A program made the translations under genes and the position numbers. From Dehalococcoidia bacterium (GTDB lineage Bacteria; Chloroflexota; Dehalococcoidia; Lucifugimonadales; QGNO01), in contig OZ252212.1 of assembly GCA_965248955.1 (NCBI GenBank), positions 959,042 to 1,023,041 of the forward strand: a stretch of 64,000 nucleotides of DNA, written 5' to 3'. The number at the start of each line of letters is the position of its first letter. Positions within the stretch are counted from its first letter, which is position 1. Below, one piece after another: positions 4,316-32,245 of this stretch. The notes below the pieces were generated by a model. It saw only the letters and a program-made list of their open reading frames with translations. It was not told the origin of the DNA and ran no database searches.

Positions 4316-4452
4316 GACTCCACCTGAGAAGGTTCGAACCGCTGATCAAAGCCCAGACTGCATACTAGTTGTCGATCCGCGTATACTTGGCTGCCGCATC
4401 CAAATCGACCGCCCACGAGTACCGCAGTTTTTCGTTGCGATCAATTCGTTAA
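4316..4452 (-). repeat. Dispersed repeat family, copy 1 (long form, ~135 nt)
   Basis: Plus strand reads ccacctgagaaggttcgaacc ... gtcgatccgc-loop-gcatccaaatcgac cgcccacgagtaccgcagtttttcg. A 37-nt stretch is identical to copy 2 in inverted orientation. It lies directly 3' of the agmatinase-family stop codon. Confidence 0.85.
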
Positions 4453-4469
4453 TCGTACAACAGGCGCGG

Positions 4470-5474
4470 CTACACCTTGACCGTGTCAAACAGCCAGGGA
4501 TGCAGGATCTTGAGCAGACCTGAGGCAGCAATCTTAACTGTCTGTGCAGAAGAGTCCCACTCGGGAGATACCTCGCAGAGATCAATCGCTCCCATAGCCT
4601 TGTAAAGGCTCAACATATCCATGGCCTCGAAGAACTCCGGCACGGTGATACCGCCAAACTCAGGGGCGCCGGTTCCCGGCGATTCATGGGCGTCTATCAC
4701 GTCGATATCAATGCTCACGTACACCGCGTCTACCCCGTCTGCCGCCACGTCCATGGCTTCCTTCATAACTTCGGCTATTCCTCTTTCACGGACACTCTTC
4801 GCCGTGAGCATCTTCAAGGAATGTTCCCTCTTTAGGCGGTGTTGGTCTATGGTTAACCCAGAATTGAGGCCGACCCAACTCAGGTTCTTATACGAGACTA
4901 TAGGATTCTCGCTTACGCGTCGCACCATTGTCCCGTGGTGGTATCGGCCTCCCAAAGAGTTGCCATCCTGAAAATCGGAATGCGCATCGATGTGGATGTA
5001 GCCGAGGCGTGCTCCTTCCGTTCTCTCGGCGATGCCTTTGGCGAATCCCTCAAAGGAGGGATAAGCAACGTAGTGGTCTCCTCCCATTACCACCGAAAAG
5101 CCGCCTCGTCTTACGACCTCGTACACTCCCTCCTTAACCGACTCCGTTGTCTTCATCAGGTCTGTGGGGTAGATGTTGAAATCACCAATATCCGCTATCA
5201 TGGGCAGGTTCTTGAGGTGGGTTCCAACCCCAGTATCCACATCCACTCGCGTGTTTTCCGGTGAAACGTCATAGCCTGCTCTGTTGTGCAGGGATGCCTC
5301 TCGAATGGACCTGGGGCCAAACCGGGCTCCAGGTCTTCCTGAGTATATCCCGTTGTCGATAGGCACCCCCGACACCACGGCAGTACCCTCAACGATTTCG
5401 TCGAACTCGACTTGGGGCGCTCGAAAGAAGGAGACGGGGCCCCCGTAATATGGCATGGCATCTCTCTCGTACAT
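4470..5474 (-). CDS. Agmatinase/arginase-family ureohydrolase
   Basis: 334-aa ORF with the Mn-binding motifs GGDH, IHIDAHSD and SIDIDVID. Confidence 0.85.
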   Translation of the reverse strand: MYERDAMPYYGGPVSFFRAPQVEFDEIVEGTAVVSGVPIDNGIYSGRPGARFGPRSIREASLHNRAGYDVSPENTRVDVDTGVGTHLKNLPMIADIGDFNIYPTDLMKTTESVKEGVYEVVRRGGFSVVMGGDHYVAYPSFEGFAKGIAERTEGARLGYIHIDAHSDFQDGNSLGGRYHHGTMVRRVSENPIVSYKNLSWVGLNSGLTIDQHRLKREHSLKMLTAKSVRERGIAEVMKEAMDVAADGVDAVYVSIDIDVIDAHESPGTGAPEFGGITVPEFFEAMDMLSLYKAMGAIDLCEVSPEWDSSAQTVKIAASGLLKILHPWLFDTVKV

Positions 5475-5800
5475 AAGGTCATCTCCCTTCCCTGTCCACT
5501 ATAGCGTCGAGTCCTGACATTAGCACCGGTAATTGGGCAGGGTCAACGTGGCTTGGGTCTGAAACTGCTGACATCTTGCGAGAAATAGTTCAGGTGGTGT
5601 CGTAGTTGGGCTGGCAGGACGTGAGGAAGCATCTCCCTGCATTGTGGTTAGACGCGGGGGATTGGCGCAGTTTCTGCGATGGACAGAACCATCTTCGAGA
5701 TGTGGATGGGGCTTTCAAGCCACCGACCCCCTGATTTCAATCATATTCGCATAGTTCGTACCCTAGACAGACGCAGGAAGCCGGAGGATCATCTCTCCAC

Positions 5801-7600
5801 TCAGTGGGAGAGGTGATCGGCTTCCTGCTCGCAGAAGAGCCGCCGCTCGCTTGGGTAAACGCCGTCAATCAGCACTCTGTGAACGTGGCTGTTAACGCAG
5901 TTATTCTGAGGGTAGACACCGTGCGAAAAGTGAGAGGTCTCCAGCAGATAGCCATTGCTGAGCGTGTCGGATACGAGCTCTTCGGATTCGCTGAAGGGAG
6001 TAAATGGATCGGAGTGGTTGCCGATCACCAGTATCGGCACTCCTCCACCGTCAAGAGGCACCTCCAGAGGGTCGGGGGCGAACTGGTCGTAGAACGGGCA
6101 GGGGCTGGGGAACTGGGGGTCTACTAACGCCAGTAAGGGGAACATTTCCTCTATAGTGGCGTTAATGACTACAGAGTCATCCAGCAGGGTGGTGCGGTCC
6201 AATTCCGGGTACAAGACCCAGTGATCCAGGCAATTGACGTGGGAAGTAAACCTTGCAGCCGTGGGTTCCGAGCCCAGTTGTATCCTGGCAAAATCTAGAA
6301 GAGTAGATGGGTCATCTCTCTCTTTGAGTTCAAACAGACCCCGCCACAGATCAGGCCATGTCTCTTCACTGTACAGGGTCGAGATCACCCCATAAAAGCC
6401 TGCCAGTGGATGATTATCCGCCACAGCATTGACAAGGCCCAGTTTCGCAACGGCCTGCCTGAAGTAGCCAACCGGGTCTCCGTCGTTGTATATGGGGCAC
6501 AGCGGATCAGTGCAAGCGATGAGCGCTTGTTCGAGAGAGTCTTCAATGGGTACGACCTCCTCGATTACCTCGTCAATCCGTTCCTGCTGAGTAGTGGCGG
6601 GGTCGACCGAGTTGTCGGCGCCGTCAACAACCATTGCCCTAACTGACTCGGGGAAGAGGGTTGCGTACCAGACCCCCAACGCCGATCCATAGGAGAATCC
6701 CAGGTAGGAGATCTGATCAGCACCCAGAGCCTTGCGTATTTCATCCATGTCTTTGGCGACGTATTGGCTGTGTAGCAGGCCGCCGATCGGCCCCATTGAT
6801 TGAATGCACAGGTTGGCCGCCGCTTCGCCGGCCGCTATCTCGTGGGGAGTATCTATGTTCCCGTCAATCGCGGCAAGCAGCCCTATCTGCTGACCGGGGT
6901 CGCCGCAGGCGAATGCAGGCTCGGACTCCCCTACCCCGCGTGGGTCGAAGCCGACGATGTCGAAGTGGGTGACGATTTCATCCGTGAACAGTCCGAATGG
7001 GAGATGGTGGACCAACTCTACACCGCTCGTGCCCGGACCGCCGGGATTAACGAACAGATAGCCTATCCGTTCGCGCGGCGACGTGGCTCGGTGCACGTTG
7101 ACCGCTATTCTGATGCTGCCTGCCTCTGGGTCCCTGTAGTCTGTGGGGACTTTTACAAATCCGCACTCGAGCTCGAATAATCCGCACCGGATCCAGTTTA
7201 TCCGCTCTCCTGCTGGGGTAGACTCAGGTTCGACTGCCGAGGTAGGAGCAGCTGGGAGAAGGGGTAGCCGAGTTGGCATTGGAGTAGCAGTTGGGTTGGA
7301 CGTGGGCATTGGAGTCGAAGCAGGTGTCGCCGTCGGCACCGCCGTAACCTCAGGCACTGGCGTGGGTGGCTGAGTTGGTGTTGGAGCAATGGACGGGACA
7401 GGCGAGGGCGTTTGGGTCAAAGCAAGTGTCGCCGTCTGCTCCGTGGTTAACTCCGGTATTGGTGTTTGAGATGGCTTGGGCATAGAGTCGCGACAGGCTA
7501 GATTAGCCGTTATAACCAGAGCCAAGATGCCGACGACGAAATACTTCTTCAATTCCTTACCCACAGCCTTCAGTGTCTCCTCTTCTTTGCAGCCCCGCAA
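5801..7600 (-). CDS. Secreted alpha/beta hydrolase (tripeptidyl-aminopeptidase-like) lipoprotein with Thr/Pro linker
   Basis: Signal peptide with lipobox ITANLAC, about 90 aa of TP-rich linker, and the nucleophile elbow GFSYGS. Confidence 0.75.
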   Translation of the reverse strand: MRGCKEEETLKAVGKELKKYFVVGILALVITANLACRDSMPKPSQTPIPELTTEQTATLALTQTPSPVPSIAPTPTQPPTPVPEVTAVPTATPASTPMPTSNPTATPMPTRLPLLPAAPTSAVEPESTPAGERINWIRCGLFELECGFVKVPTDYRDPEAGSIRIAVNVHRATSPRERIGYLFVNPGGPGTSGVELVHHLPFGLFTDEIVTHFDIVGFDPRGVGESEPAFACGDPGQQIGLLAAIDGNIDTPHEIAAGEAAANLCIQSMGPIGGLLHSQYVAKDMDEIRKALGADQISYLGFSYGSALGVWYATLFPESVRAMVVDGADNSVDPATTQQERIDEVIEEVVPIEDSLEQALIACTDPLCPIYNDGDPVGYFRQAVAKLGLVNAVADNHPLAGFYGVISTLYSEETWPDLWRGLFELKERDDPSTLLDFARIQLGSEPTAARFTSHVNCLDHWVLYPELDRTTLLDDSVVINATIEEMFPLLALVDPQFPSPCPFYDQFAPDPLEVPLDGGGVPILVIGNHSDPFTPFSESEELVSDTLSNGYLLETSHFSHGVYPQNNCVNSHVHRVLIDGVYPSERRLFCEQEADHLSH

Positions 7601-7883
7601 CCCTGCCTGATGTACGGTACACTCTGGCCCACCAGTTTATGCCTAAAGCCATAAAGCACTCGAACTCGTCCGCTGCGTTCACTCCAGCTTTCGCATTTCG
7701 CAGCTGGCATACTATTCGCGGAAGCCGCCGTCATTCGAGTTCTTCTCTGTATTCACACGGCGTAAACCGACTATCCGGCTGGCCTACTACGAGGAGTAGG
7801 GCGGCCCCGTCTACTGACTGTCGATCAGCGCCTCAATCCGCTCCAGTATGTCGGTCATTCGGGCAACTCCGTGTCGGATGTAC

Positions 7884-9062: not shown

Positions 9063-9076
9063 TCAGAAAAGAGGAT

Positions 9077-10492: not shown

Positions 10493-10704
10493 CTGCGATT
10501 ATCCCACCCGGGCTTCCCAAGCTCGGGCCTGACCTCAAATGGGACCGGCGCAATGCCCTCAACGGGTATTGGTTCACGTGGATTCCTGCTGCGACCTGGC
10601 CACTCCTCGTTGCTACAATGGCATTGCAAGCTATAAAGTGGTTCTGTCTACCGTCAAAATAGGCCCACCCAACTGGACAAAATCAAGAACCTTCATCCGT
10701 CAGG

Positions 10705-10835
10705 CACAATCGACACAAAAAACTGCGGTACTCGTGGGCGGTCGATTTGGATGCAATCAGGTAATGTTAGGGGATCGACGAATGGTTGTGACACCTCGGC
10801 CCTAATCACCCGTTCGAGCCTTCTCCAGTGGGTTG
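10705..10835 (+). repeat. Dispersed repeat family, copy 2 (long form, inverted relative to copy 1)
   Basis: cacaatcgacacaaaaaactgcggtactcgtgggcggtcgatttggatgc-loop-ggatcgac...cccgttcgagccttctccagtgg. It has the same architecture as copy 1, with a different hairpin loop. Confidence 0.85.
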
Positions 10836-10916: not shown

Positions 10917-11161
10917 TCAGTGAGTAACCGTCATCGCGCCTCCAAGGGTCTCGCCACGATGCTCCGGACGATAGTACGAATAGACCTGGGAGACGACCTC
11001 TTTGGCCCGGACCGGGTACTTGGCCCGCGCCTGGAACCCGAATGAGACCGTCTCGCCCGGCATCATGTCCTCGATGTAGAGGATCACCTTCCGACCCGCG
11101 ATTTCGAATCGCTTGAGGCTCGCGGCCGTCATCGACAGAGCGCGCACTATCGCCCCAGACG
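10917..11161 (-). pseudogene. C-terminal fragment of a bacterial alpha-2-macroglobulin-family gene
   Basis: LKRFEIAGRKVILYIEDMMPGETVSFGFQARAKYPVRAKEVVSQVYSYYRPEHRGE matches the receptor-binding-type C-terminal domain. No upstream domains are present. Confidence 0.55.
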
Positions 11162-11585
11162 CCCGCAGCTTCGCAGTTCGAGTGACAAGGGTTCGGTGAC
11201 GGCACGGCTGGCAATTGCAATGTCGTATGCCAGACGAATCCCGCCAAGCCGGAAAGACCGATATGTGTGCTCCGGTCAGCAGGAAGGTTGTCAGGTAAGT
11301 CCGGTCACGATCTGTCCCGACACCACCCTCGCACACCTGTGAGGGAACGTTTTCTTGGCTCGAAACGTATTATCAAGTATGGGCTCGTTCGAAGGTGTCA
11401 AGAAGTCGCCGCAGTGGGTGCAGAGGAACATCGCGATGGGCTTCGTTGCTATCGGGGAACTTTTCCCTGTTCCGGTGCGTCTTACTCGTTGCAGGCTCAC
11501 ATTTTGGGCGGGACAATAAATGACGCACCAGGACGAGGCCATCCAGAGGCATTGCGATTCCAGATAGAGGAAGACGGTTTACACG

Positions 11586-12668: not shown

Positions 12669-13844
12669 ATGGGTCCAACTCTGCCGAAGGATACTCAGTT
12701 CTATTTCCCTCCCGAGCTCACCTGCCTGGAGGGGATAGGCCATCTGGAGCCTGAAGAAACGGTGGCAGCGGTGGAGGTACATAACGGACGGTGGGGGTTG
12801 TCCGGCCACTCTCTGCAGGGTAACCGTTACCTCATCACCATTGAGGCGCCCGGTCTCCGTCTCGAGCCTGCGGGCTACGTGGCCGTGGTCTTCTCGAGCA
12901 AGACCCGCCATCGAGTGCGGGGCGTCGACTTCTATATTGGCGACGCGGAGGCGCCAGACTGCGATACTAGCCCAGGGGTTGTGGAACCTGCCGCCCGCGA
13001 GGCGCTGAGGAACATGGCCAAGGACCCCATGGCCCGTATTGCGGAGCAAGTCCCCGGATTTGGCGGGGCCTTTCGGGATTCGGACCAGAAGGTCGTGTAC
13101 ATCTACCTTCAGGATGCCTCCCTGAAAGAGGAGGCGGAGCGCGCTCTAGAGGAGGAGTTTGGCTCCGATTTCCTCGCGGGCCGCGAGGTCCAGGTCCTGA
13201 AGGGCGACTACAGCATGGACCACCTGAATGCTTGGTATAGGGCTCTGAGTGGTGCCATATCTCAGGTCCCAGGCATCGTGTACACCGACCTGGACGAGGG
13301 GAAGAACCGCATCGAGATCGTCATGTACCCACGGCGCGGGGGGCGCGAGGAGATGGAGGCTGCCATAGCGACGGTGGACGTCCCAAGGGGAGCCATCCTC
13401 ATCGAGGTCGGATGTGAGGGCAAATGGCCCCGTGACCTTGGGGAGCCTCCGGAGGAGGCGTTCCTCCAGGCCATCGAATACTCGCTGGAGGTGGTGTCCC
13501 AGGCCCCTTACGGAGAGACGGTGGAGATGAAGCTAACCTTGCGGAACGTCAGTGATGGGCCGGTGAGCTTTTATCTCGGGGGGTCGCCCGCCTATGACTT
13601 CGTGGTCTCGACGGCTGACGAAGAGTTGGTATGGCACTGGAAGTGCGCCAAGTTGACCCTCTTGATGCTGGGTATCAAGACCCTGGAACCTGGTGAAGAG
13701 TTGGGATTCGTTGGTGAGTGGGAACAGATAGACAACCGGGGGGAGCCCGTTCCCCCTGGCACATACCTGTTGCGTGCTGTGTTGAATTTGGAATCGCCGG
13801 AGAAGCTCGTAACCGAGGTCCAGAAGGTGGAGGTGGTCCAGTGA
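12669..13844 (+). CDS. Hypothetical protein with C-terminal BsuPI-like (protease-inhibitor fold) domain
   Basis: The C-terminal ~100 aa (LTLRNVSDGPVSFYLGGSPAYDFVV...LEPGEE...PPGTYLL) fit the BsuPI pattern. The N-terminal start is uncertain. Confidence 0.55.
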   Translation: MGPTLPKDTQFYFPPELTCLEGIGHLEPEETVAAVEVHNGRWGLSGHSLQGNRYLITIEAPGLRLEPAGYVAVVFSSKTRHRVRGVDFYIGDAEAPDCDTSPGVVEPAAREALRNMAKDPMARIAEQVPGFGGAFRDSDQKVVYIYLQDASLKEEAERALEEEFGSDFLAGREVQVLKGDYSMDHLNAWYRALSGAISQVPGIVYTDLDEGKNRIEIVMYPRRGGREEMEAAIATVDVPRGAILIEVGCEGKWPRDLGEPPEEAFLQAIEYSLEVVSQAPYGETVEMKLTLRNVSDGPVSFYLGGSPAYDFVVSTADEELVWHWKCAKLTLLMLGIKTLEPGEELGFVGEWEQIDNRGEPVPPGTYLLRAVLNLESPEKLVTEVQKVEVVQ

Positions 13845-14029
13845 GATGCATCGTCCTCATTGGGCCGCTGGCCATTCTCCTGTTCCTCGTGGCTGCCTGC
13901 TCCAATGGGACGCCATCGGCTCCTGATGCACCGCCGCCTTCGGAAGAGGCCACGCCAACGGTCGCGCCGACCTCGACGGTCATCTCAGGTCCACCAGACT
14001 GGATTCGAACCGTGGCTTCGACTGGTTAG
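13841..14029 (+). pseudogene. Truncated lipoprotein gene (signal peptide plus ~40 aa only)
   Basis: The GTG start overlaps the upstream stop (GTGA). Signal peptide with lipobox LFLVAAC is followed by a short TP-rich stretch. The frame then runs straight into repeat copy 3 (ccaccagactggattcgaacc) and terminates. Confidence 0.4.
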
Positions 14030-14181
14030 GCGCGCCTGCCTTACCGCGGCCGGAGGCTGGCTCCCGTGGACTCTTAGTCAATGGTGCCGTCCGCCGGGGG
14101 GGTGCTTCCTACTACGTACTGGCGTCAGTCCCACCAACTATGAGTAGCGCAGTTTTACGTGTCTTTTGTGTATTGTGAATG
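13988..14181 (-). repeat. Dispersed repeat family, copy 3 (long, diverged, ~190 nt)
   Basis: Outer box ccaccagactggattcgaacc and inner core cccaccaactatgagtagcgcagttttacgtgtcttttgtgtattgtgaatg. The right flank matches copy 11. Confidence 0.7.
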
Positions 14182-14200: not shown

Positions 14201-14228
14201 TTTACTGCAGAGTTTTCGTTGCGATTAC
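14201..14228 (-). repeat. Dispersed repeat family, copy 3b (core-only fragment)
   Basis: tttactgcagagttttcgttgcgatta matches the copy 1 core and flank ccgcagtttttcgttgcgatca. Confidence 0.5.
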
Positions 14229-14239
14229 TTCTTCGCTAT

Positions 14240-14352
14240 GCAGACTCCCCCTTACATCACAAACCGACTGGCTGGGAGATTCAGCTTCATTTCTACCCGA
14301 AATCTTCAGATCGACCGTCCAAGAGTAGCTCAGTTTATTGTGTCGATTGAGA
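14240..14352 (-). repeat. Dispersed repeat family, copy 4
   Basis: aaccgactggct...atcttcagatcgaccgtccaagagtagctcagtttattgtgtcgattgagaaatgggg. The right flank gtcgattgagaaatggggatggtgtat is shared with copies 7 and 10, next to a recombinase 3' remnant. Confidence 0.7.
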
Positions 14353-14629
14353 AATGGGGATGGTGTATCTTGGCCTCTTCATCCACTGGTGAAAGTAGGC
14401 TTTTTCAGCCACCTGCTGATGGCCGTGTGATTGGCCAGCCTCTTATTCACATCATACGTGCTTGGCCCCGATTCTGGCGAGTGAGATAGGAACGCCAAAC
14501 CGATAGGGAAGGGACCGACGTGTCGGCGACTCGATGGTCCCCTATGAGGGGGTGCTTCTATAGTCTGCAATACGGTACGTGTAGGCACAAACCCCCGCCA
14601 GTATCTTGCACTCTCATCCTGCAGATAAG

Positions 14630-20697: not shown

Positions 20698-21093
20698 TTG
20701 GCAAGTTGGCGAAGCTCTCTTGTGATGGCGGGGTTGACTGCGGCGGGCTGTAGCCTATTTGAACAGGACCGGGAGCCTTCTCCGGCTCCGACGGATGTAC
20801 CTACGCCACAGCTCACAGCTGATGTGCAGGGAGAGACCACACCCGAATCTGCGGAGGGGCTGGCTCTTCCTCGTGCAGCTCAGTATCAGTTCGTGGCCTT
20901 AGTGCCCGTCAGCGTTGGAGGAGCGCGCAAAACGTACCGAGACTTAGGGTGCACGCGATGCTCCAATGTGCTAGCAGATAGCCCATACCAAGAGTTTGTG
21001 CTAATTGGCGACCGCCTCTATGACGAGAGAAAGCCGCATGCCGAACGTGAGTTGGGAATATGGAGGGCAATTTGTATAAGGCGGCGCACATGA
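20698..21093 (+). CDS. Small hypothetical lipoprotein
   Basis: Lipobox LTAAGC. Its stop overlaps the ATG of the downstream giant gene (ATGA at 21090-21093), which suggests translational coupling. Confidence 0.5.
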   Translation: MASWRSSLVMAGLTAAGCSLFEQDREPSPAPTDVPTPQLTADVQGETTPESAEGLALPRAAQYQFVALVPVSVGGARKTYRDLGCTRCSNVLADSPYQEFVLIGDRLYDERKPHAERELGIWRAICIRRRT

Positions 21094-24000
21094 CACGATG
21101 GTTGGCTTACGGGATATTGACCGTTGCGCTCGCATGTCTTCTTGGGGGCTGCAACGGGGACTCAGGCGCACCTGAGCCAACCCCTACCGGAGCTGAGTCG
21201 AGGGGGCTCACGGCCACGACGGAACCGAGCTCCACACTGACGCCAGAACCAACCCCCACGGTGGAACCAACTCCCACACCGACGCCAGAACCAACCCCCA
21301 CGGTGGAACCAACTCCCACACCGACGCCAGAACCAACCCCCACGCCTACTCCAGAGCCTACGCTCAAACCCATCGATCCGAATCTATCCATCCTGGACCA
21401 GTTCCCAGCGATAGAGCGTAGCTGTCTGTTACTCGATATGGAAGAGAACCGCTTGTACCGGATCTTCAACCAGGAATCCAGTGCGACGGCCGAAGAATTC
21501 GAGGCCATAGCAGGTTGCATAAGCAGGGACACCGTGACCGCCATGTATATCGGTGCGCTTGCGGAGGGGTTGAGTGTGAGCGGCGAGACGTCGGCCTGTG
21601 CGGTGGGCCGACTGGAGAAGATGGACAAGGACCTCCTAATGCTAGCGTCGATAAACTCCGAGCATGAAACCGCGGTTTACCTTGGCCTTGGTTATGACGA
21701 TGAGGCGCTGCAAGACTTGGGGGCGTCTATTTCGTTGTCTGTGCTCCTCTGCATGGACAAGGAAGAGTGGACGGCCCTCAGCCCATGGGGTCTCAATGTC
21801 GATGATGTGAGCATAGATGCACTCAGATGCTTCCTGAACGAATTGGGGCCGCGGGGCCTCTACGAGTTGGATGCTGCTACCGAGGGCGCAACGCCATCGC
21901 TTGAGCTGTTCTCAGCGGCGGGGAGTTGCGGGATAGACCTGGAGTCGTTGCTGTCAAAACAAACGAGGCCAGAACCCGCACCGACGGTGAGGCCAGCAGT
22001 TCCCGTGCCAACCGCAACCCCCGTGCCGACGGCTGCACCACAGAGGGAACCCGAGGCGACTCCCACCGCAGCGCCAGCGGCTACGGCAGTACCAGAGCCC
22101 ACAGCTGCTCCGACCGCCACTCCAACGGACACGCCCGAGCCGACTCCTACGGACACGCCTACGCCCGCCGCAGTTGATAGGGCCGCGCTGGTGGCGCTCT
22201 ACGAAGCGACGGACGGAGCTAACTGGACGAGCAACCACAACTGGCTGAGCGACAGGCCAATCGGAGAATGGCGCGGCGTAATCGCTGACCTCAGCGGGCG
22301 CGTCACCGAGCTGCTCCTCTCTGAGAACCAGTTGAGCGGCGAGATACCGGCCGAGTTGGGCAACCTCGCCAACCTTCAATACCTGTTCCTCTCTAAGAAC
22401 CAGTTGAGCGGCGAGATACCGGCCGAGCTGGGCAACCTCGCCAACCTTCAATACCTGTTCCTCTCTAAGAACCAGTTGAGCGGCGAGATACCGGCCGAGC
22501 TGGGCAACCTCGCCAACCTTCAATACCTGTTCCTCTCTAAGAACCAGTTGAGCGGCGAGATACCGGCCGAGCTGGGCAACCTCGCCAACCTTCATTCCCT
22601 GCTCCTCTCTGAGAACCAGTTGACCAGGTGCCTACCCGAAGGGTTGCGAGAGATACAGGAAAGTGATTTCAACATCATGTCCATTCGTCCGCCCTTGTGC
22701 GGAACAACCCCGGCGAGCATGATCGCGGCGGGCGGCACAATCGCAGTCCTCCAGTCTCTTGAGTCACTGTCGGGCGCTCATCGGAGAGATGGCACAGAGT
22801 TTGAGTGGTCGCAGGTGTCGGGTCCGCCCGTTGAACTCCTCAATGCGAATGCTGAGTATGCTCGGTTCACGGCCCCGGTGGTCGTTGAAGACACCATCTT
22901 GGTGTTTGTGCTGAAAGCCGAATATCAGAACGACGTCACGGTGATCGATACTGTGCCGATACGCGTCGTTCCCATGAGAACGGAGAGGGTGTTGGCTGCT
23001 TTGGTGGACTTTCTTGACGTGGACCCCAGAGAAAGACCCTTCACCAGAGAAGATATCGTCAAGCTCCTTGAGGCTAATGACGATTCATTGAGCAATTTCA
23101 TTGCTCAGACCTCGCGCAATTTGGTGAGCGTTGACTTTGACGTCCTGGACTGGATCACTGTCGACAAGAACAGGACGGACTACCCGTTAGGTGGTGGCAC
23201 CGTGGTGAAGGACGTCGTCAGCAGGATGTCCGACTTTGCCGACTTGAGTCAGTATGACAAGGTGATGCCGTTAATCTTTCCTCTCGAAAAAGGATATCCC
23301 GGATGCCAGGCTTACCTGTATAAGGACCACTGGAACACGCCAAACGGCCGCTTCCGATTGGGTGCCTTGTGGCTGAGCGGCTATGACATGGGTTGTGTAC
23401 GAAAAGGTAGGATTGCACACGAGTTTGGACACACATTCGCGTTCGTACACTCATATGTGATTCTCTGCCACAGAGAGCCGCCCTTGCCGGCGAGCATGAC
23501 TGACCCCACTGACAAGAACAGCTCCTGCTATACCGTATATGCCGGGGAGAAAGAGGAAGCTAGCATTATCGCCAACCAAGACTTTGACATGCTGGGCGGC
23601 GACCATCGATACGAGAGCTTCTTTCCGGTTCACTTCCACGCAACATGGCAGGATCGAGCCGGATGGTTGGCCGAGGCCCAGGTCGTTGCTGCGAACAGCG
23701 CCGGCGAGTACTGGCTCACCGCTTTGGAATCCCTTACTCCCACACCGAAGGCTGTGAGGATATTCTTGGGAACCGATCACGAGGGAAACTCCCTATACTA
23801 TCTGATCCAACATCGTGAGTTCAGCCCGTGGTCCATGGGTAGCCAGGCGGGGTCTTCGTGCCAAGCCGATGTGAGGCTTGAAGCCTCCAACATATTTAAG
23901 CGTGGGCAATTCAATACTTACTTTTTCAATGGGTATATCGATGGCGTGAGAGTGGATTCCATATCACGCCCGGGTAAGCCGTTATGGGACCCTTACCGTG

Positions 24001-24425
24001 GCATTCGTATCGAAATACTTGACTGCATAGATACTCCAATAGGTGAGGTTGTCAGGATGCAAGTCAACTTTTCCAAACTGGATATTGACCCGCGGGTAGT
24101 CGCCATTTTCGATACTGCCGGAAAAGCGACGATAAAGATGACAAACAACGGCAGCGTACCGATTGACGTTGGCTCTGCCTCGATCGGGGGCAGACATCCG
24201 ACCGCATTTGTCGTTGATTCTGACGAATGCAGTGATTCCACACTGAAATCGAAAGCATCGTGCGAGATCATCCTGTCGCATGTCCCAACCGACACTGAGG
24301 ACGATGAACCCAGCAATCACGGTGTGTTGAAGATCCCGAACAATGACGCATTGGCACCCGAGATGACGGTGAGTCTATTTGCGGCGAATGCAAACCGATC
24401 ACAGCTTCCGCCGACCCGGAAGTGA
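21090..24425 (+). CDS. Large surface lipoprotein: Thr/Pro repeats, leucine-rich repeats, C-terminal HExxH metalloprotease-like domain
   Basis: Signal peptide with lipobox LLGGC and EPTPTVEPTPTPTP tandem repeats. NQLSGEIPAELGNLANLQYLFLSK occurs four times (plant-type LRR). IAHEFGHTFAF lies in the C-terminal region. I placed the start at ATG 21090; the ORF track uses 21060. Confidence 0.85.
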   Translation: MTRWLAYGILTVALACLLGGCNGDSGAPEPTPTGAESRGLTATTEPSSTLTPEPTPTVEPTPTPTPEPTPTVEPTPTPTPEPTPTPTPEPTLKPIDPNLSILDQFPAIERSCLLLDMEENRLYRIFNQESSATAEEFEAIAGCISRDTVTAMYIGALAEGLSVSGETSACAVGRLEKMDKDLLMLASINSEHETAVYLGLGYDDEALQDLGASISLSVLLCMDKEEWTALSPWGLNVDDVSIDALRCFLNELGPRGLYELDAATEGATPSLELFSAAGSCGIDLESLLSKQTRPEPAPTVRPAVPVPTATPVPTAAPQREPEATPTAAPAATAVPEPTAAPTATPTDTPEPTPTDTPTPAAVDRAALVALYEATDGANWTSNHNWLSDRPIGEWRGVIADLSGRVTELLLSENQLSGEIPAELGNLANLQYLFLSKNQLSGEIPAELGNLANLQYLFLSKNQLSGEIPAELGNLANLQYLFLSKNQLSGEIPAELGNLANLHSLLLSENQLTRCLPEGLREIQESDFNIMSIRPPLCGTTPASMIAAGGTIAVLQSLESLSGAHRRDGTEFEWSQVSGPPVELLNANAEYARFTAPVVVEDTILVFVLKAEYQNDVTVIDTVPIRVVPMRTERVLAALVDFLDVDPRERPFTREDIVKLLEANDDSLSNFIAQTSRNLVSVDFDVLDWITVDKNRTDYPLGGGTVVKDVVSRMSDFADLSQYDKVMPLIFPLEKGYPGCQAYLYKDHWNTPNGRFRLGALWLSGYDMGCVRKGRIAHEFGHTFAFVHSYVILCHREPPLPASMTDPTDKNSSCYTVYAGEKEEASIIANQDFDMLGGDHRYESFFPVHFHATWQDRAGWLAEAQVVAANSAGEYWLTALESLTPTPKAVRIFLGTDHEGNSLYYLIQHREFSPWSMGSQAGSSCQADVRLEASNIFKRGQFNTYFFNGYIDGVRVDSISRPGKPLWDPYRGIRIEILDCIDTPIGEVVRMQVNFSKLDIDPRVVAIFDTAGKATIKMTNNGSVPIDVGSASIGGRHPTAFVVDSDECSDSTLKSKASCEIILSHVPTDTEDDEPSNHGVLKIPNNDALAPEMTVSLFAANANRSQLPPTRK
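21243..21345 (+). repeat. 42-bp tandem repeat (about 2.4 copies) encoding PEPTPTVEPTPTPT
   Basis: ccagaaccaacccccacggtggaaccaactcccacaccgacg is repeated identically at 21243 and 21285, and a partial third copy follows. Confidence 0.9.
22317..22604 (+). repeat. 72-bp tandem repeat, 4 copies (LRR units)
   Basis: Units start at 22317, 22389, 22461 and 22533. Units 2 and 3 are identical over 72/72 nt. Units 1 and 4 differ at a few positions. Confidence 0.95.
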
Positions 24426-24812: not shown

Positions 24813-25244
24813 GCCGAGTTCATGGCCGAGGAGCCGGTGAAGCCCAAGGGCCGGAGCCGCAATGGAGGCGTCTTTGCTCGAACTCCATGTCGCTGTGGCC
24901 ACTACGAGCCCTCCAACCCTGGCGGGCTGGAGGCTCGTGGGCCAAGCCGGGTACTGTGTGACTCGCGCCTGTTTTGTTACAGCGAGACCTCCCATCGAAA
25001 AGTTCGCAGTACAGTACACGTAGGCCCGCCAAGGAAGGCTCGAACCATCATGCGGTCCGACGTTGAGGTGGATTACCGGACATCGTGAAGAATGAGATGT
25101 TCTAGGGGCTCGACTGGAATCGGGTGTTACAGAGGCATGGAGCGTAGCGAGCACTAAGACCGACGGTATTGCCCTCACAGCGGTTGTATCGCTAGCCGTG
25201 ACCTTCACTTGCCCAAGGCTCTAGCGCTACCCATCGCTAGCTAC

Positions 25245-25285
25245 GCTCACCGCCCACGAGTACCGCATTTTCTGTTTCTATTGCC
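25245..25285 (-). repeat. Dispersed repeat family, copy 5 (core; long form about 25024-25290)
   Basis: ctcaccgcccacgagtaccgcattttctgtttctattgcc. It is preceded by a long-range stem (gagcgtagc...gctacgctc) and an outer box ccaaggaaggctcgaacc at about 25030. Confidence 0.75.
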
Positions 25286-25530
25286 TCTCACCCATGAGCA
25301 GTGGAGAGTAACATACGTGCGCATTGCGGGAGGAAGGCTGTGCTGGGGCAGCAAGCTGGATGGTCATGAAGCCTCGCCCGGAGAGGATTATAAGTTCACG
25401 TCCGTCAGCAGCAGCCGCTCTCACGGGTGCGTTTTGCGGGACGATGGCGCGGTCCAGTGTTGGCGATGGCCATAAACGAGGGAGCTGGAGTCGCTCTGGT
25501 TGGACCATGACATCGACAACGGTATTCAAG

Positions 25531-25570
25531 TTCACCGCCCACGAGCACCGCAATCTTCTGTGTCGTTGCC
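25531..25570 (-). repeat. Dispersed repeat family, copy 6 (core)
   Basis: ttcaccgcccacgagcaccgcaatcttctgtgtcgttgcc. Confidence 0.7.
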
Positions 25571-25783
25571 CTCAACACCGGATACCGGGTGGGCGGCGAC
25601 ACCGAGCGGACACGATTACCAGCGCTACCCACGCCGTAGACGAACTGGTGCGCAACACGTCTTATGAGTTCCGCGTGAGCGCATACGCGGACGGCGACAC
25701 CTACAAAGACGAGTAGGGTGGCGCAGAGGTATCCGCAACGACCGGAGTCTGAAGCTAAGCCCTAGAGAAGCGACTCTGCCCAT

Positions 25784-26007
25784 TCAGGGAATTAGCCGCC
25801 AACTCCAGTTCCACCACTCCCAGCGGCATCCAAGTCCACCGCCCAAGAGTACCTCAGTTTTTGTAGTCGATTGAGAAATGGGGATGGTGTATGTCAGAAC
25901 GGCCTCTTCTCCCACCACTTCGATGCCCTCCACGAAGTTGCGGATGAGCGCCTTGTGCTCAGGGAATGTCCCTTCCTTTAGAAACTCACGGAAGTCCGCC
26001 ACGTACC
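25784..26007 (-). pseudogene. C-terminal fragment of a large serine recombinase gene (copy A)
   Basis: YVADFREFLKEGTFPEHKALIRNFVEGIEVVGEEAVLTYTIP is the typical extreme C-terminus of large serine recombinases. No catalytic or zinc-ribbon part is present. Confidence 0.55.
25826..25875 (-). repeat. Dispersed repeat family, copy 7 (core)
   Basis: gcatccaagtccaccgcccaagagtacctcagtttttgtagtcgattgag. It overlaps the 3' tail of the recombinase fragment ORF. Confidence 0.75.
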
Positions 26008-26022
26008 TATTCACTAGTGGTG

Positions 26023-26341: not shown

Positions 26342-27376
26342 TTAGTTCGTAGCAGGACGCCCAGAGACGTCCACCTGGCCGTAGATATCCTCTAGGGCCG
26401 CAAATATCTCGGCTTGAATGCCATCTGCGCCTTCACTGTACAGGTCTTTGGGCCCGCCTATCTCGTTGTTCACCCCCAGGTAAGACTGCGACATCTCAGC
26501 AAAGAACTCCCGTCCGCCTTCCACCCTCATTCCAAATGCGTTCGGCCATAACCCGGCTTCCCGGGCCCTGCCATACAGCCCCAGCCACACTTGGCGAGTC
26601 TCATCATCGAATCCAAGGTTCTCAATGGCGTGGGCCCATTCGTGCACGGTAATATCCTCCGCCCAGAAACGGGTCTGGTCTTCAACCAAATCAAGCAGAT
26701 TTTCCTCTGAGGTCACGGTGGTGGTTTGCTCCGGAACGCCGCCTGCTCCCCGCACCCTGAACGAGTCGTACGGATTGCCGTTGAGGTCCAGCCTCCCTCG
26801 AAGGAACGCCAATTCCGGGATTTCGGTGATATAGCCGTCCTTGGGGATTATTGCCAGTGAGGCTCCCGCTTCCGCCATCCGCTGGGCGATGTCCGGCCGG
26901 TGGGACAGCATTGTGCGGACGATGTCGGCAGCGACCTCCAAGGCCTCTGGCGCCACCGCCCCGGAGGCCTTGACCCGAATGCCATCCACATCTACAACCT
27001 GTGTGTAGTACTGCCCAGGAGTAGCCGTAGGCGCGGAAGCAGGCGTGGGAGTTGGAGTGACAGTCGGAGTCGGTGTTGCCGTAGCTGTAGGGTCAGGAGT
27101 GTTGGTTGGTGTAGGTGTTGCAGTAGGCGTAGGAGTAGGAGTAACAGTTGGCGTCGGTGTTGCCGTAGCTGTAGGGTCAGGAGTGTTGGTTGGTGTAGGT
27201 GTTGCAGTAGGCGTAAGAGAAGAAGGAAGAGATGCAGGTATAGTTAGAGTTACGTCAGGTGTCGGTACAGGGACTTCAGACTCCCTACTTTGGTAACAGG
27301 CAGCCGATGCTGCTAACGCGAGCAGTGCTAGCGCAGTGTTCCTTATCCCAGCTCCGCTCAACCAGCGGGGGTTCAT
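26342..27376 (-). CDS. Secreted lipoprotein with Thr/Pro linker and HExxH zinc-metallopeptidase-like domain
   Basis: I placed the start at MNPRWLSG. Lipobox ASAAC, a duplicated TP-rich linker, and VHEWAHAIEN in the C-terminal domain. Confidence 0.7.
   Translation of the reverse strand: MNPRWLSGAGIRNTALALLALAASAACYQSRESEVPVPTPDVTLTIPASLPSSLTPTATPTPTNTPDPTATATPTPTVTPTPTPTATPTPTNTPDPTATATPTPTVTPTPTPASAPTATPGQYYTQVVDVDGIRVKASGAVAPEALEVAADIVRTMLSHRPDIAQRMAEAGASLAIIPKDGYITEIPELAFLRGRLDLNGNPYDSFRVRGAGGVPEQTTTVTSEENLLDLVEDQTRFWAEDITVHEWAHAIENLGFDDETRQVWLGLYGRAREAGLWPNAFGMRVEGGREFFAEMSQSYLGVNNEIGGPKDLYSEGADGIQAEIFAALEDIYGQVDVSGRPATN
27045..27220. repeat. 84-bp tandem duplication inside the Thr/Pro linker coding region
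   Basis: gtcggtgttgccgtagctgtagggtcaggagtgttggttggtgtaggtgttgcagtaggcgta occurs at 27069 and again at 27153. Confidence 0.85.
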
Positions 27377-27484
27377 TTTTACCTCGTATAAAACTAAGGT
27401 CACGTCCCATAGAGTGGTGTAAGAGTACGTCATCCTGTTGATATCGTCTAGGCCGCTGCCTCTGCGAGTTCAGCTCTGGGTAGA

Positions 27485-28374
27485 GGAGCGTAGCGAGCAC
27501 TAAGACCGACGGTATTGCCCTCACAGCGGTTGTATCGCTGGCCGTGACCTTCATGCCCAAGGCCCTAGCGCTACCCATCGCTAGCTACGCTCACCACCCA
27601 CGAGTACCGCATTTTCTGTTTCTATTGCCTCTCACCCATGAGCAGTGGAGAGTACCATACGTGCGCATTGCGGGAGGAAGGCACTGTGCTGTGCTAGGGC
27701 AGCAAGCTGGATGGTCATCAAGCCTCGCCCGGAGAGGATTATAAGTTCACGTCCGTCAGCAGCGGCCGCTCTCACGGGTGCGTTTTGCGGGACGATGACG
27801 CGGTCCAGTGTTGGCGATGGCCATAAACGAGGGAGCAGGAGTCGCTCTGGTTGGACCATGACATCGACAACGGTATTCAAGTTCACCGCCCACGAGCACC
27901 GCAATCTTCTGTGTCGTTGCCCTCAACACCGGATACCGGGTGGGCGGCGACACCGAGCGGACACGATTACCAGCGCTACCCACGCCGTAGACGAACTGGT
28001 GTGCAACACGTCTTATGAGTTCCGCGTGAGCGCATACGCGGACGGCAACACCTACAAAGACGAGTAGGGTGGCGCAGAGGTATCCGCAACGACCGGAGTC
28101 TGAAGCTAAGCCCTAGAGAAGCGACTCTGCCCATTCAGGGGATTAGCCGCCAACTTCAGTTCCACCACTCCCAGCGGCATCCAAGTCCACCGCCCAAGAG
28201 TACCTCAGTTTTTGTAGTCGATTGAGAAATGGGTATGGTGTATGTCAGAACGGCCTCTTCTCCCACCACTTCGATGCCCTCCACGAAGTTGCGGATGAGC
28301 GCCTTGTGCTCAGGGAACGTCCCTTCCTGTAGAAACTCACGGAAGTCCGCCACTTACCTATGCACTAGTAGGTG
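27485..28374. repeat. Direct repeat B (~890 bp), partner of 25139-26022
   Basis: See repeat A. It contains family copies 8-10 (cores at 27590-27629, 27882-27921 and 28177-28226). Confidence 0.9.
28156..28353 (-). pseudogene. C-terminal fragment of a large serine recombinase gene (copy B)
   Basis: MADFREFLQEGTFPEHKALIRNFVEGIEVVGEEAVLTYTIP. A stop codon immediately upstream replaces the Tyr codon seen in copy A. Confidence 0.55.
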
Positions 28375-28499
28375 TCGGTAGTATCGCAGGCGCTGAGATA
28401 GCGGCTTTCACGCAAAGAACGAGAATCTCGCGGCCATGAATGCAACCTGCAGCTGCAGGCCGCCTAACACTGTGGCGATACCGCCGAAAGGAAGAAGCG

Positions 28500-28851
28500 G
28501 GGGGTCGGCGCGCACGCTCTTTCCCATGCCCAATGCCGAGCATGCCGCAATGACGATGGTCAGCAACGTTCGGGTCGGCTGCTATATTCAAGTACCACGC
28601 TGGATGGTAGTCCTAGCCGTAGTTCGAAGCAACGATAATTGGTCGCCTGACTCTTCAAACTGGAAGTACATCAAGGGCGACGACCGCGGCTTGCCGCTCC
28701 TGCGTCCCTTAGTCACCAGGATAAGGATTCTGTGCCCTTCCAAGCGGCTCAGAAGGCGTCCGTTGGAGAGGCGAAACAAGAGCCGATGCACCGGGACGAA
28801 GAACCATGTGATGATGAGGCGTCTATAGGTCAGTACGGCGGGCTCATTCAC
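28500..28851 (-). pseudogene. DUF385 / deazaflavin-dependent nitroreductase-family gene, disrupted
   Basis: ILILVTKGRRSGKPRSSPLMYF is followed, after a frameshift, by IIVASNYG-stop-DYHPAWYLNIAADPNV. There is one frameshift plus an in-frame TAG. Confidence 0.5.
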
Positions 28852-29112
28852 GGGATTACAACTATGTCAGCATTGTTGCAGGACACTGTCAAGGTGACCG
28901 GTCGCCGCATGATTACCGTTTGAGGTGGTGTCGCTGTGAGGATCGTCCCGGTCAGCCCTCTACAATAGCTACGGTGTGGTGCATGACGATGCCCACACCG
29001 TGGGATACGATAGTCGAGGCGTTGGGCAGGGCGACGCTGAGGCCATCTCTATTCTAGACCAGGGGGTAGGCGACCTCAGCGGTGAACACTGCTAGACGGA
29101 AGGCAGGGGTAC

Positions 29113-30276
29113 CTACTTGCACAGGCAGGAGGCAGCGTCTAGGTCGAAACGGCTAAGGCGGAGGAACGAGATGTCATGGCCCGTCTCGCCCCGTGTGGCC
29201 AAATCGGCCATGATCTCGCCCACAACGCTACAGAACTTGAAACCGTGGCCAGAGAACCCTGCTGCAAAGAAGACATTCGGAGATCCAGGTAAAGCATCAA
29301 TTATAAAGTGCCCGTCGGGTGTATTCGTGAACATGCAGGGCTTCAGGGATACCGTCGGCCCGTTTGCATCAGGAAAGTAGCGGACCAAAGCCTTCCGCAA
29401 CACTGCCTCGTCCTCATCCCGGCAGTCTCTCTCCAGGCCATCGGCGGTCGTCACCTCATTCAAGTGGTGGAACCTGCCGATCTTGAACCCCGGGATGCCG
29501 AATACAGGGAAGGAATAGTATTGCCCTTCCTCGAACTCGCCGATCACCACCGGGCAGTTTCCAAGCGCAAAGAGATGCGGGCGTAGCGGCTGGAACCAGC
29601 CGAGGACCTGACGTTCAGGTACCAGCAGGTGGCTCAACGACGGCAATAGCGGCCCCGCCCAGGCGCCGGCCGTAATGACCAGCGCCCCTGCCTCGTATAG
29701 TCCGCGGTTAGTCTCTACTCTCACGGCGCCCCCAGCGCTGCTCCATTCCCGCACCGCCTCATGGGCCCTCACTTCGCCGCCGCGCTCTAGTGCAGCGAAG
29801 ACGTGGTTGACTATGCACCGCTCCGACAGCACGAACCCGCCGTCAGGCTGGTATATCCCCATCCAGTTCTCCGGGAACCGGAATCCCGGGAAGCGCCGAG
29901 TCAGCTCGGCACTGGTGAGCGCCTCGTGCGGCAGGTCATGCTCGCGGCAGGACCGCAGGGATCCGGTAAAGACCCTGCCTTCCTCATGACTGGTGTCCAC
30001 CGAGCCGGTGATGTACAACAGCTTCTCGCCGCTCGCCTCCTCCAGCTCGCGCCACCGCTCGTACGAGCGCCGCAGGAGCGGCACGTAGGACGAGTCCTCG
30101 TAGTAGGCCAGCCGGATAATGCGGTTTATGCCGTGCGACGATCCGGAGTCGTTCGGTATACTGAAACGTTCAAGGCCTAGCACGCGCATGCCGCGACTTG
30201 CGAGCTCGTACACGGTGGCGGAGCCCATTCCCCCGACACCAATGACTATTACATCGTATGTACCGCTTGTCCTCAT
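29113..30276 (-). CDS. Monomeric sarcosine oxidase / N-methyl-L-tryptophan oxidase family flavoenzyme
   Basis: YDVIVIGVGGMGSA (FAD fold), CMFTNTPDGHFIID (covalent-flavin Cys context) and GFSGHGFKF. Confidence 0.85.
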   Translation of the reverse strand: MRTSGTYDVIVIGVGGMGSATVYELASRGMRVLGLERFSIPNDSGSSHGINRIIRLAYYEDSSYVPLLRRSYERWRELEEASGEKLLYITGSVDTSHEEGRVFTGSLRSCREHDLPHEALTSAELTRRFPGFRFPENWMGIYQPDGGFVLSERCIVNHVFAALERGGEVRAHEAVREWSSAGGAVRVETNRGLYEAGALVITAGAWAGPLLPSLSHLLVPERQVLGWFQPLRPHLFALGNCPVVIGEFEEGQYYSFPVFGIPGFKIGRFHHLNEVTTADGLERDCRDEDEAVLRKALVRYFPDANGPTVSLKPCMFTNTPDGHFIIDALPGSPNVFFAAGFSGHGFKFCSVVGEIMADLATRGETGHDISFLRLSRFDLDAASCLCK

Positions 30277-30352
30277 CCAGTTCCCGGCCTCGGTTCAGCA
30301 GGGCTTGCTTGCCCATCTTCTGTGACCACTACAGACGGCGTGGTCCCCTGCA

Positions 30353-31501: not shown

Positions 31502-31560
31502 GGGCACTAACCGAGATGACCTGCCTCCTGATCACCACATAAGCTGGTCCCTTGGACGCT

Positions 31561-32091
31561 TCACTTCCCTGTTTCACTGGTCGCCCGTAACGTCTGCTCA
31601 AGGCTTTCCAGTTTTTCGCGCAGTTCTGAAACGCTTTCCTCGACATGCTGTCCCGCCGTGTCTATGACGATACCGGCTTCCCAAGGTTCATACTCCCGTT
31701 CGCAGACCTCCTGCCACGTAGGTAATCGGTGTCCCGCGATGTCGGCTATCCGTGTTTCCACTCTGCGCTGGTGCTCCGCCTGGTCGGAACAGACGATCCC
31801 GATCTCGATGCACCGCTCGCCTGCTCGTTTGGCGACATCCCGCCAAGCGGCTCGGGTTGACCCCACTGGGTTCACGGAATCGGCTATCACGGTGCGGCCC
31901 AGTCTCAGATTGTCTTCGGCAATCGCATAGGCTACCACGTACCCCTCGGGCCCGGATACTGTTATGTTGGAGTTGCGCAGCGTCTGCTCGATGGAATCGA
32001 TGCGCAGATGAACAGCCTCTATGTCGCGTGCCAGTCCGGTGGCAATCGCTGTTTTCCCCACCGCCGGAAGGCCTCCGAAGATCAATAACAT
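31561..32091 (-). CDS. P-loop kinase (AAA_33-like ATP-binding protein)
   Basis: 176-aa ORF with Walker A GGLPAVGKT at the N-terminus. Confidence 0.7.
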   Translation of the reverse strand: MLLIFGGLPAVGKTAIATGLARDIEAVHLRIDSIEQTLRNSNITVSGPEGYVVAYAIAEDNLRLGRTVIADSVNPVGSTRAAWRDVAKRAGERCIEIGIVCSDQAEHQRRVETRIADIAGHRLPTWQEVCEREYEPWEAGIVIDTAGQHVEESVSELREKLESLEQTLRATSETGK

Positions 32092-32119
32092 CAGATCGTG
32101 GTTTCCAAGACTTCGTTAG

Positions 32120-32245
32120 ACAATCGACTGGCTCTCCAAGTGGCCACGCCTTCTACTACATCCATTCCAACTGCCCGCGGGTCGACTGTCCATAAACTCC
32201 TGAGTTTTTCGTGTCTATTGTGTATTGCGAACGTTCTACCAGAAC
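32120..32245 (-). repeat. Dispersed repeat family, copy 11
   Basis: caatcgactggct...gggtcgactgtccataaactcctgagtttttcgtgtctattgtgtattgcgaacg. The flank matches copy 3. It sits at the left edge of a low-GC islet. Confidence 0.7.

Follow-up and report, generated by a model that had tools for sequence, protein, structure and literature searches.

What is the short, unannotated sequence that recurs about a dozen times along 64,000 nucleotides of the chromosome of a Dehalococcoidia bacterium, mostly beside fragments of genes? The stretch in question (GenBank assembly GCA_965248955.1, contig OZ252212.1, positions 959,042 to 1,023,041; hereafter the window, numbered from its first letter) was given a preliminary description from its letters alone, in which the repeat was taken either for the recombination-site-bearing end of a serine-recombinase element or for a structured element or non-coding RNA (ncRNA). 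It is most likely the non-coding junction (att) module of integrative elements that would be moved by large serine recombinases (LSRs) in an uncultured clade of Dehalococcoidia. With a probability of roughly 0.6, the copies are attL/attR-type scars and mini-elements produced by island integration, tandem accretion and erosion.

The repeat family and its distribution

The dispersed repeat family proved to be genuine by motif counts, repeat finding, blastn and a profile HMM built from the copies. The 24-nt core CCGCCCACGAGTACCGCAGTTTTT is matched six times in the window at three mismatches or fewer, where neither chance nor shuffling gives any match, and the other methods recovered 11 copies and one partial piece at the coordinates first described. 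The heptamer CCGCCCA, from which positions within the module are counted below, starts at 4409 (+), 10741 (-), 14134, 14315, 25250, 25535, 25839, 27594, 27886 and 28190 and, weakly, at 32186. The earlier count of at least 12 copies stands only in part: 11 are detected by the HMM, the copies at 14201 and 32186 are weak and the former is just a partial right-hand piece. Furthermore, copies 9-11 are not independent of copies 6-8, because 25139-26022 and 27485-28374 form a segmental duplication of about 0.9 kb with 96.9% identity, each arm of which carries three copies and an inverted recombinase stub. Copies 1 and 2 do share a 37-nt block and a second box (GAGAAGGYTCGAAC, here called Box 1), as had been claimed; the box lies about 70-90 nt upstream, at 4326 and 10825.

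Apart from the repeat, the window is ordinary chromosome, with rpoC, ftsH, greA, fumC, transporters and metabolic genes; neither a recombinase nor a transposase was found intact in it. The notion that the copies mark boundaries between gene fragments was borne out. Among the neighbouring pieces listed in the preliminary description, the alpha-2-macroglobulin (A2M) tail and the RCC1-like and fn3-like pieces were recovered, but the supposed FAD-oxidase stub is a full-length gene at 29113-30276 (Pfam 1-353/353). The A2M receptor-domain tail (10917-11336, minus), the RCC1-repeat piece (25335-25475, plus, with an internal frameshift) and the fn3-like C-terminal piece (25579-25715, plus) are gene fragments rather than genes.

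One genome from each of 185,579 species was scanned with the 22-nt core motif CCGCCCAMGAGYACCKCAKTTT. Of the 38 loci obtained, 37 lie in about 25 metagenome-assembled genomes (MAGs) of Dehalococcoidia, while the same pattern found only two chance matches, in a GC-rich coding region, in a JGI metagenome scan and none in viral contigs. Hence, it was concluded that the family is lineage-restricted and conserved over many species-level genomes. The window's blocks of a gene 3' end followed by a long form of the repeat (RCC1-like, then fn3-like) recur in 5-6 other MAGs at 96-99% identity, with an identical right edge and different neighbours, and the RCC1 and fn3 pieces belong to longer genes in loci L009/L030 and L022.

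Anatomy of the module

Pairwise comparison of 70 copies placed the left ends of homology at about -13 to 0 relative to CCGCCCA, with the highest pile-up at -13 and the second at -1, and the right ends in two piles, at +33/34 (..ATTG) and +47-50. The universal core, GCATCCAAGTCCA-CCGCCCACGAGTACCGCAGTTTTTCGTGTCTATTG, is followed by ten subfamily-specific bases and then by a fixed triplet, 10 nt past ATTG, which is ATG in 30 of 59 distinct copies. The conserved arm extends about 40 nt after the CCGCCCAC centre and ends at the fixed ATG; between copies, the sequence is unrelated on the left of the centre and past the ATG, apart from recognisable classes beyond the triplet. Long forms carry, in addition, Box 1 about 90-200 nt upstream of the core. 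Four of these (L002, L005, L013 and L038) have an identical sharp left edge (CCCACTTGAG; CCCACTTGAGAAG from the edge on) against four different, unrelated flanks. Box 1 opens with (G)CCCAC, and TCGAACC lies 15 nt beyond, at the distance that separates a tRNA T-loop from the centre.

Three alternative partners were seen for the right-part modules, namely the core, LSR tails and reverse-complemented Box 1. It is at the att centre, then, that homology between copies breaks, as is seen from the left ends at -13 to 0, the sharp edge of Box 1 and the alternative partners of the right part. The recombination-site idea of the preliminary description is supported by this, but its term "half-sites" is not apt, as the conserved unit is an att centre with one arm and the long forms hold two such modules.

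The copies differ by ±1-nt indels in the T-run region, and CTATTG variants place a TAG stop in the sole reverse-strand frame used by recombinase open reading frames (ORFs), so that only the CGATTG (class A) copies read through. Given these indels and TAG variants, no frame was found to be conserved under purifying selection across the copies as in a protein-coding domain. The repeat is thus noncoding, as previously stated, on the forward strand; on the reverse strand, copies of the class with ...GATTGAGAAATGGGGATGG supply recombinase ORFs with their C-terminal tail.

Link to large serine recombinases

LSR homologues were found in 17 of the 37 loci, which had been picked by the motif alone. An LSR-homologous segment starts no more than 45 nt from the fixed triplet in 19 of 68 cores (12 co-oriented, 7 inverted), and in many further cores (those with class A and class B ends) the LSR remnants are too short to be picked up by tblastn. 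The reference LSR (L025, 4959-6593) has Resolvase, Recombinase and Zn_ribbon_recom domains according to Pfam, and related loci hold full-length recombinases of 545 aa together with many truncated copies. In the window the LSR evidence consists of remnants only (26014-25853 and 28353-28204), which confirm the recombinase remnants seen in the preliminary description.

Within the element, the LSR gene comes last and is read outward over the att site. One class of LSR ORFs has its final ~14 codons (TYTIP-ISQSTTKTEVLLGG) supplied by the reverse-complemented core and ends with GG at the centre, as canonical tails end with GGP. The TYTIPISQST.. ending was found in 11 of 60 database relatives inspected, and the LSR of L041 ends likewise. 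At that locus, genes for a type IV secretion system (T4SS) pilin and for TraC/VirB4-like, TraG-like, Replic_Relax, helix-turn-helix (HTH) and ribbon-helix-helix (RHH) proteins are followed by the LSR and then by the reverse-complemented core, past which lies a convergent BsuPI-domain gene; a BsuPI-domain gene also precedes copy 3 in the window. Judged by its gene content, the L041 module resembles a conjugative element, and of the elements apparently moved by LSRs some would be conjugative and others reduced. In L019 (6640-7700), the unit arm-centre-Box 1-core occurs three times over.

Two readings of the LSR ends were discarded. The core is not the native 5' leader of a full-length LSR gene, since the five near-full-length relatives looked up have RHH genes or other DNA in front of them instead of the core. 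Database LSRs starting with MREAASRG were considered as another junction, which was ruled out in L046, the one locus examined, where a frameshift at a G7 homopolymer precedes this start in the long-read assembly. LSR relatives that look truncated at the N-terminus may partly be artefacts or pseudogenes (the G7 frameshift at ~3070 in L046, an in-frame TAG at ~3945 in L045; long-read assemblies at 3-9x coverage). In addition, in-frame internal deletions occur in LSR genes at recurrent positions, joining aa 146 to 248, 106 to 248 and 58 to 121 (P0002, P0056, P0099 and P0030; loci L041-L044 and L048); their junction sequences read SENL/IWG and KSM/LVWG, with 3-nt microhomologies (CTG/TTG) only.

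Junctions at tRNA-Lys and the att site

Intact tRNA-Lys genes overlap or abut the 3' ends of LSR genes in L006 and L031, and in L048 the LSR tail is followed by a reverse-complemented, apparently tRNA-like sequence. The tails are encoded by two types of arm, GGTTCTTGATTTYGTCCAG, which encodes SVLDFVQ, and GGTTCTGTCTACCGTC, which encodes SVLSTV. In the genuine junctions, the LSR tail (..SVLDFVQSGGP or ..SVLSTVKNGGP) passes into an intact tRNA-Lys at its 3' end; what they have in common is the centre TGGTGGGC(C/G)G, which is CCGCCCACCA in reverse complement.

Four kinds of partner were observed after arm and centre. The first is an intact tRNA-Lys on the opposite strand (L006 and L031). The second is the other subfamily's arm, inverted, which makes the site palindromic (window 10640-10692, L009, L037 and L045), or, in L003, a second identical arm; the canonical sites are palindromic in the form GGTTCT...AGAACC (window 10640-10692, L003, L009 and L045). 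The third is Box 1 (L025, L015 and L019), and the fourth is the class D module GTGTAAGACTGAATTGCGAACTTTTCGCTGGGAGG (L046 and L049), which is also found after cores and after reverse-complemented Box 1 (L002 and L013). The L003 site (2021-2070) is a perfect palindrome of two identical LSR tail arms (GTTCTTGATTTTGTCCAG ... CTGGACAAAATCAAGAAC) around a 14-nt spacer.

Where Box 1 follows an LSR tail, it stands where the tRNA acceptor and T-arm stand in the tRNA-Lys junctions, with the spacing kept. The start of the core, CCGCCCAC, equals the 3' acceptor strand of the L031 tRNA-Lys, and the reverse-complemented core CTCGTGGGCGG is identical to the L031 junction CTGGTGGGCGG at 10 of 11 positions around the centre (z=3.1-3.6). 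At the level of sequence, integration at tRNA-Lys, the common centre and the boundaries of the modules are established by these comparisons. On account of the tRNA-Lys centre match, the T-loop spacing and the read-through tail that ends with GG at the centre, both Box 1 and the core look like modules of a centre and an element-borne arm, with the left flank as the variable partner. The first hypothesis of the preliminary description, a recombination-site-bearing end, was therefore essentially right and is favoured here: LSR genes, full-length and truncated, abut the repeat in related genomes, the same LSRs lie against intact tRNA-Lys genes, the core opens with the tRNA-Lys 3' acceptor sequence, and Box 1 stands in for the T-arm at an equal spacing.

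Probable origin of the copies

The elements would integrate at tRNA-Lys and at lookalike centres, each copy of the repeat being an attL/attR-type hybrid or a mini-element that keeps only the part recognised by the LSR. Since every element would bring its own arms, copies would multiply, new landing sites would arise and elements would accrete, new ones landing beside earlier ones as the triple array of L019 may illustrate. Deletion and inversion would then erode the islands down to the LSR-recognised modules and leave 5'-truncated cargo genes and recombinase stubs between them. As no recombinase survives in the window, all 12 copies there would be scars. We infer the action of LSRs on the core, as well as the history of accretion, from the junctions described above.

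Several findings weigh against this interpretation. The 23-mer of the core is far more conserved than the adjacent coding DNA, which a mere binding arm may not need; for comparison, the majority-base fraction in the truncated-recombinase unit is ~0.8 per column and blastn identity between loci is 70-88%. All co-oriented cargo that could be identified shares the frame of the fixed ATG, which a model of scars does not predict. Beyond the centre of 8-11 nt, no significant similarity connects the arms of the core with the canonical LSR arms. The left part occurred without the right part in none of the 37 loci selected by the core's left part, and the core was never seen split. Finally, LSR genes have many other breakpoints (aa 58, 88, 104-106, 121, 146 and 248), so that more than one process must be at work. 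Two more specific proposals fell with these results: a resemblance by eye between the core arm TCTACCGTCAAAAA and the canonical arm TAGACACGAAAAA was dropped as not significant in a controlled alignment, and the core as a complete att site split by integration was ruled out, there being no half-cores.

Alternative explanations

The frame of the cargo is the starting point of the alternative that survives best, namely an outward-facing module for expression and capture, in which the core would provide the start of transcription and translation and the LSR would join promoterless, 5'-truncated gene pieces to it in frame, as on an integron-like platform. It is in accord with the share of ATG among the fixed triplets and with the recurrence, at 96-99% identity and in differing surroundings, of units of a gene 3' end and a long form. 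Of the frames that follow the triplet, frame 0 stays open longest in 28 copies and frame 1 in 7. The co-oriented cargo that could be identified independently of ORF length is all in frame and comprises LSR pieces from aa 106, 146, 248 and 529, a 2-Hacid_dh_C piece (residues 96-175 of 178; Pfam E=5e-26) and RCC1-like and fn3-like pieces; the chance of this is ~0.1-1% for six to eight events. However, crossovers could prefer CTG/ATG codons, which could explain part of the frame bias, most ATG-led ORFs have just 2-30 codons, and the cargo consists of fragments, with no whole genes. About a third of the junctions are inverted, no sigma-70-like promoter was found, no purine-rich Shine-Dalgarno-like run is seen by eye in the 10 nt before the ATG, and the window has no stable platform with an intact recombinase. 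Such a module is unlikely. That the core is a landing pad of LSR-driven gene capture, a conserved leader with a start codon to which gene pieces are always joined in frame, seems improbable; if it were true, the landing pad would be a functional analogue of the integron based on a different recombinase family, and N-terminally truncated proteins would be created, including recombinase derivatives with DNA binding only.

A non-autonomous transposable element, i.e., a miniature inverted-repeat transposable element (MITE) or the end of an insertion sequence (IS) or HUH element, that inserts after genes and into recombinase or transposase genes is quite improbable. The long form of ~140 nt is sharp at both edges with unrelated flanks, but these edges coincide with the recombinase att centres. 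One fixed end meets variable points of neighbouring genes in both orientations, as in deletions and inversions adjacent to transposons; the 5' halves of the "interrupted" genes, however, never turn up at the opposite side. Genes of the IS3, IS256 and IS5 types often lie nearby, yet the linkage is not consistent for any transposase. Terminal inverted repeats are lacking (alignment scores of 4-7 against shuffle means of 4.9-5.7), as are target-site duplications, and a MITE or IS end of a DDE transposon was rejected for lack of both. Cores and their cargo frequently adjoin internal parts of transposase genes of the IS3, IS256 or IS5 type, in both orientations (L011 at ~1779; L010 at 3636-3880; L012, L017 and L027), and the repeat regions collect several kinds of mobile DNA.

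A structured ncRNA, or an RNA derived from tRNA or tmRNA, transcribed from the long form is highly improbable, although the repeat is conserved at the nucleotide level over ~25 species-level MAGs, has a T run past the conserved block, contains a T-loop-like GGTTCGAACC in Box 1 and carries tRNA-Lys acceptor sequence in the core. Rfam gave no relevant match at the gathering score, nor when the limit was relaxed to E<=5 (28.5 kb searched) or E<=10 (231 nt), and ARAGORN found no tRNA or tmRNA in the window, in agreement with the earlier failure to match either. RNAalifold, applied to twelve diverse long forms, returned a consensus energy of 0 and no pairs, and folds of single sequences were inconsistent between copies. 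The hairpin GTCGAT/ATCGAC, described at first as a kept stem with a variable loop, was no better than shuffled controls: 78% of cells were paired against 75% in shuffles, 40-143 of 500 column shuffles equalled it and no covariation was detected. No terminator-like hairpin was found. Without a consensus structure, covariation or an Rfam match, the second hypothesis of the preliminary description, a structured element or ncRNA, was not upheld. Apart from the acceptor match of 8 nt, the long forms show no significant similarity to tRNA-Lys, for which reason a decayed pseudo-tRNA was dropped as well.

A promoter or terminator was set aside for want of a sigma-70 promoter or intrinsic terminator consensus, and an integron attC site because there is no consensus fold, the ends are CCCAC.../...ATTG-N10-ATG and the linked recombinases are of the serine type (IntI was not searched genome-wide).

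Features of the window

The copies and the modules beside them are listed in Table 1.

Table 1 Repeat copies and associated recombination modules in the window
Feature	Position	Strand	Evidence and remarks
Copy 1, long form	4320-4443	+	Box 1 (CCACCTGAGAAGGTTCGAACC) 4320-4345; universal core 4396-4443; profile E=6e-16; begins 30 nt past the stop codon of an HTH_34 gene (3337-4290)
Palindromic recombinase att-like site, complete	10640-10692	.	GGTTCTTGATTTTGTCCAG / TTGGGTGGGCC / ..GACGGTAGACAGAACC; directly after copy 2; GGTTCT...AGAACC arms around TTGGGTGGGCC; arms equal the 3'-terminal coding arms of the two recombinase subfamilies (compared: L009, L037, L008, L045); no recombinase gene attached
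Copy 2, long form	10694-10832	-	Box 1 10832-10807; core 10754-10707; fixed ATG 10696-10694; E=8e-18; downstream of the A2M receptor-domain tail ORF (10917-11336, minus)
Copy 3, long degenerate form	13991-14181	+	Box-1-like 13991-14013; core 14121-14168; fixed ATG 14179-14181; E=5e-5; downstream of a BsuPI-domain gene (12669-13844)
Copy 4, partial right-hand piece (CTGCAGAGTTTTCGTTGCGAT)	14201-14231	+	blastn E=0.1, weak
Copy 5, class A	14302-14370	+	Core, then ATGGGGATGGTGTA, the reverse complement of recombinase codons for (R)YTIP; E=1.5e-10; probably an eroded recombinase junction
Inverted right-part class D module, ..GTGTACTGTACTGCGAACTTTTCGATGGGAGG	24965-25022	-	Abuts Box 1 of copy 6
Copy 6, long form	25023-25296	+	Box 1 (CCGCCAAGGAAGGCTCGAACC) 25023-25047, equal to the end of a recombinase tail remnant; core 25237-25283; fixed ATG 25294-25296; RCC1-like fragment follows
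Copy 7	25522-25581	+	Core; fixed triplet 25579-25581 in frame with the fn3-like gene 3' end (fn3 E=0.006)
Copy 8, class A	25826-25886	+	Fixed ATG 25884-25886; E=3e-19
LSR remnant, aa 461-514 of the L025 reference	25853-26014	-	tblastn 72% identity, E=5e-18; reads into reverse-complemented copy 8
Copy 9, duplicate of copy 6	27581-27640	+	Repeat finding, profile
Copy 10, duplicate of copy 7	27873-27932	+	Repeat finding, profile
Copy 11, duplicate of copy 8	28177-28237	+	Core motif, profile
Second LSR remnant, aa 465-514	28204-28353	-	tblastn 78% identity, E=1e-17
Copy 12	32173-32233	+	Left part weak and diverged; right part intact (GAGTTTTTCGTGTCTATTG-N10-ACG); E=0.085

The arms of the segmental duplication enclose 1.46 kb with an ORF of 363 aa (26342-27433, minus) that could not be annotated and that includes 42-nt tandem repeats at 27027-27194. 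At 21060-24425, a leucine-rich-repeat (LRR) protein of 1121 aa is encoded, with 72-nt tandem repeats (22239-22670) and a Pro/Thr-rich tract of 18/24-nt repeats (21214-21368). A conserved unit composed of an LRR gene end, the core and a truncated recombinase occurs in about 7 of 10 aligned MAG loci, in which the 3' ends of related LRR genes are used.

Comparison with known systems

The closest described system is that of the ssrA-specific islands of Dehalococcoides, in which a CcrB-like LSR, DsiB, lies next to attL and tandem islands occur with 20-bp repeats, islands without an integrase being interpreted as cis-mobilizable elements (McMurdie et al. 2011, PMC3146451). Both systems belong to the same bacterial class and have an LSR of ~540 aa nearest one island edge and reading towards it, integration at the 3' end of a small RNA gene and tandem islands parted by repeats of the target's 3' end. 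Here, however, the target is tRNA-Lys and lookalike sites instead of ssrA, the repeated module measures 48-265 nt rather than 20 bp, and the copies are scattered over at least 28 kb beside unrelated genes, whereas the ssrA islands are lined up behind one RNA gene. Furthermore, T4SS genes are present in at least one relative, while the ssrA islands are described as non-conjugative, and the junction is traversed by the recombinase ORF. The gene tables of the loci looked up list no small partner recombinase of the DsiA/CcrA type; an RHH gene precedes the LSR instead.

In staphylococci, the staphylococcal cassette chromosome (SCC) enters the chromosome at one site only, the 3' end of rlmH (orfX), and has short repeats; it shows neither dispersal nor a recombinase read-through tail. 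The composite SCCmec islands (CcrAB/CcrC) and pseudo-SCC elements, also summarised in PMC3146451, are comparable to the present elements in their LSR-driven insertion, in cassette arrays with repeated integration sites and in the many cassettes without a recombinase, but here the copies are dispersed and the recombinase has a read-through tail. The streptococcal elements of the ICESt1/ICESt3 type depend on tyrosine integrases and one chromosomal site. Accretion of such integrative and conjugative elements (ICEs) and the cis-mobilizable elements (CIMEs), both also cited in PMC3146451, offer a parallel in that att-flanked remnants without recombination or conjugation genes persist and serve as landing sites; in the present case the recombinase is of the serine type and the remnants go down to ~140-190 nt. 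As for the attC sites of integrons and chromosomal repeat families such as the Vibrio cholerae repeats (VCRs), these also form a repeat of ~50-140 nt after each gene piece that marks cassette boundaries and was first seen as an unexplained dispersed repeat. Unlike them, the present repeat has no R''/R' boxes (RYYYAAC/GTTRRRY) by eye and no conserved folded-strand structure, and its cargo consists of pieces of ORFs, not complete ones; neither the window nor the loci showed a tyrosine IntI or an attI platform, with no specific search made.

Significance

The repeat is most likely a lineage-specific, newly described form of a known phenomenon, the junction and remnant modules of serine-recombinase islands. 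Its signature, CCGCCCACGAGTACCGCAGTTTT together with Box 1, flags such junctions and remnants in uncultured Dehalococcoidia and delimits horizontally acquired, eroded regions for which annotation pipelines give nothing. Should the in-frame start codon be functional, it would represent a new route to the capture and expression of gene fragments. The picture drawn from the ssrA islands is extended to targets of the tRNA-Lys type, to elements with conjugation genes and to dispersed junction modules that would shape local gene decay.

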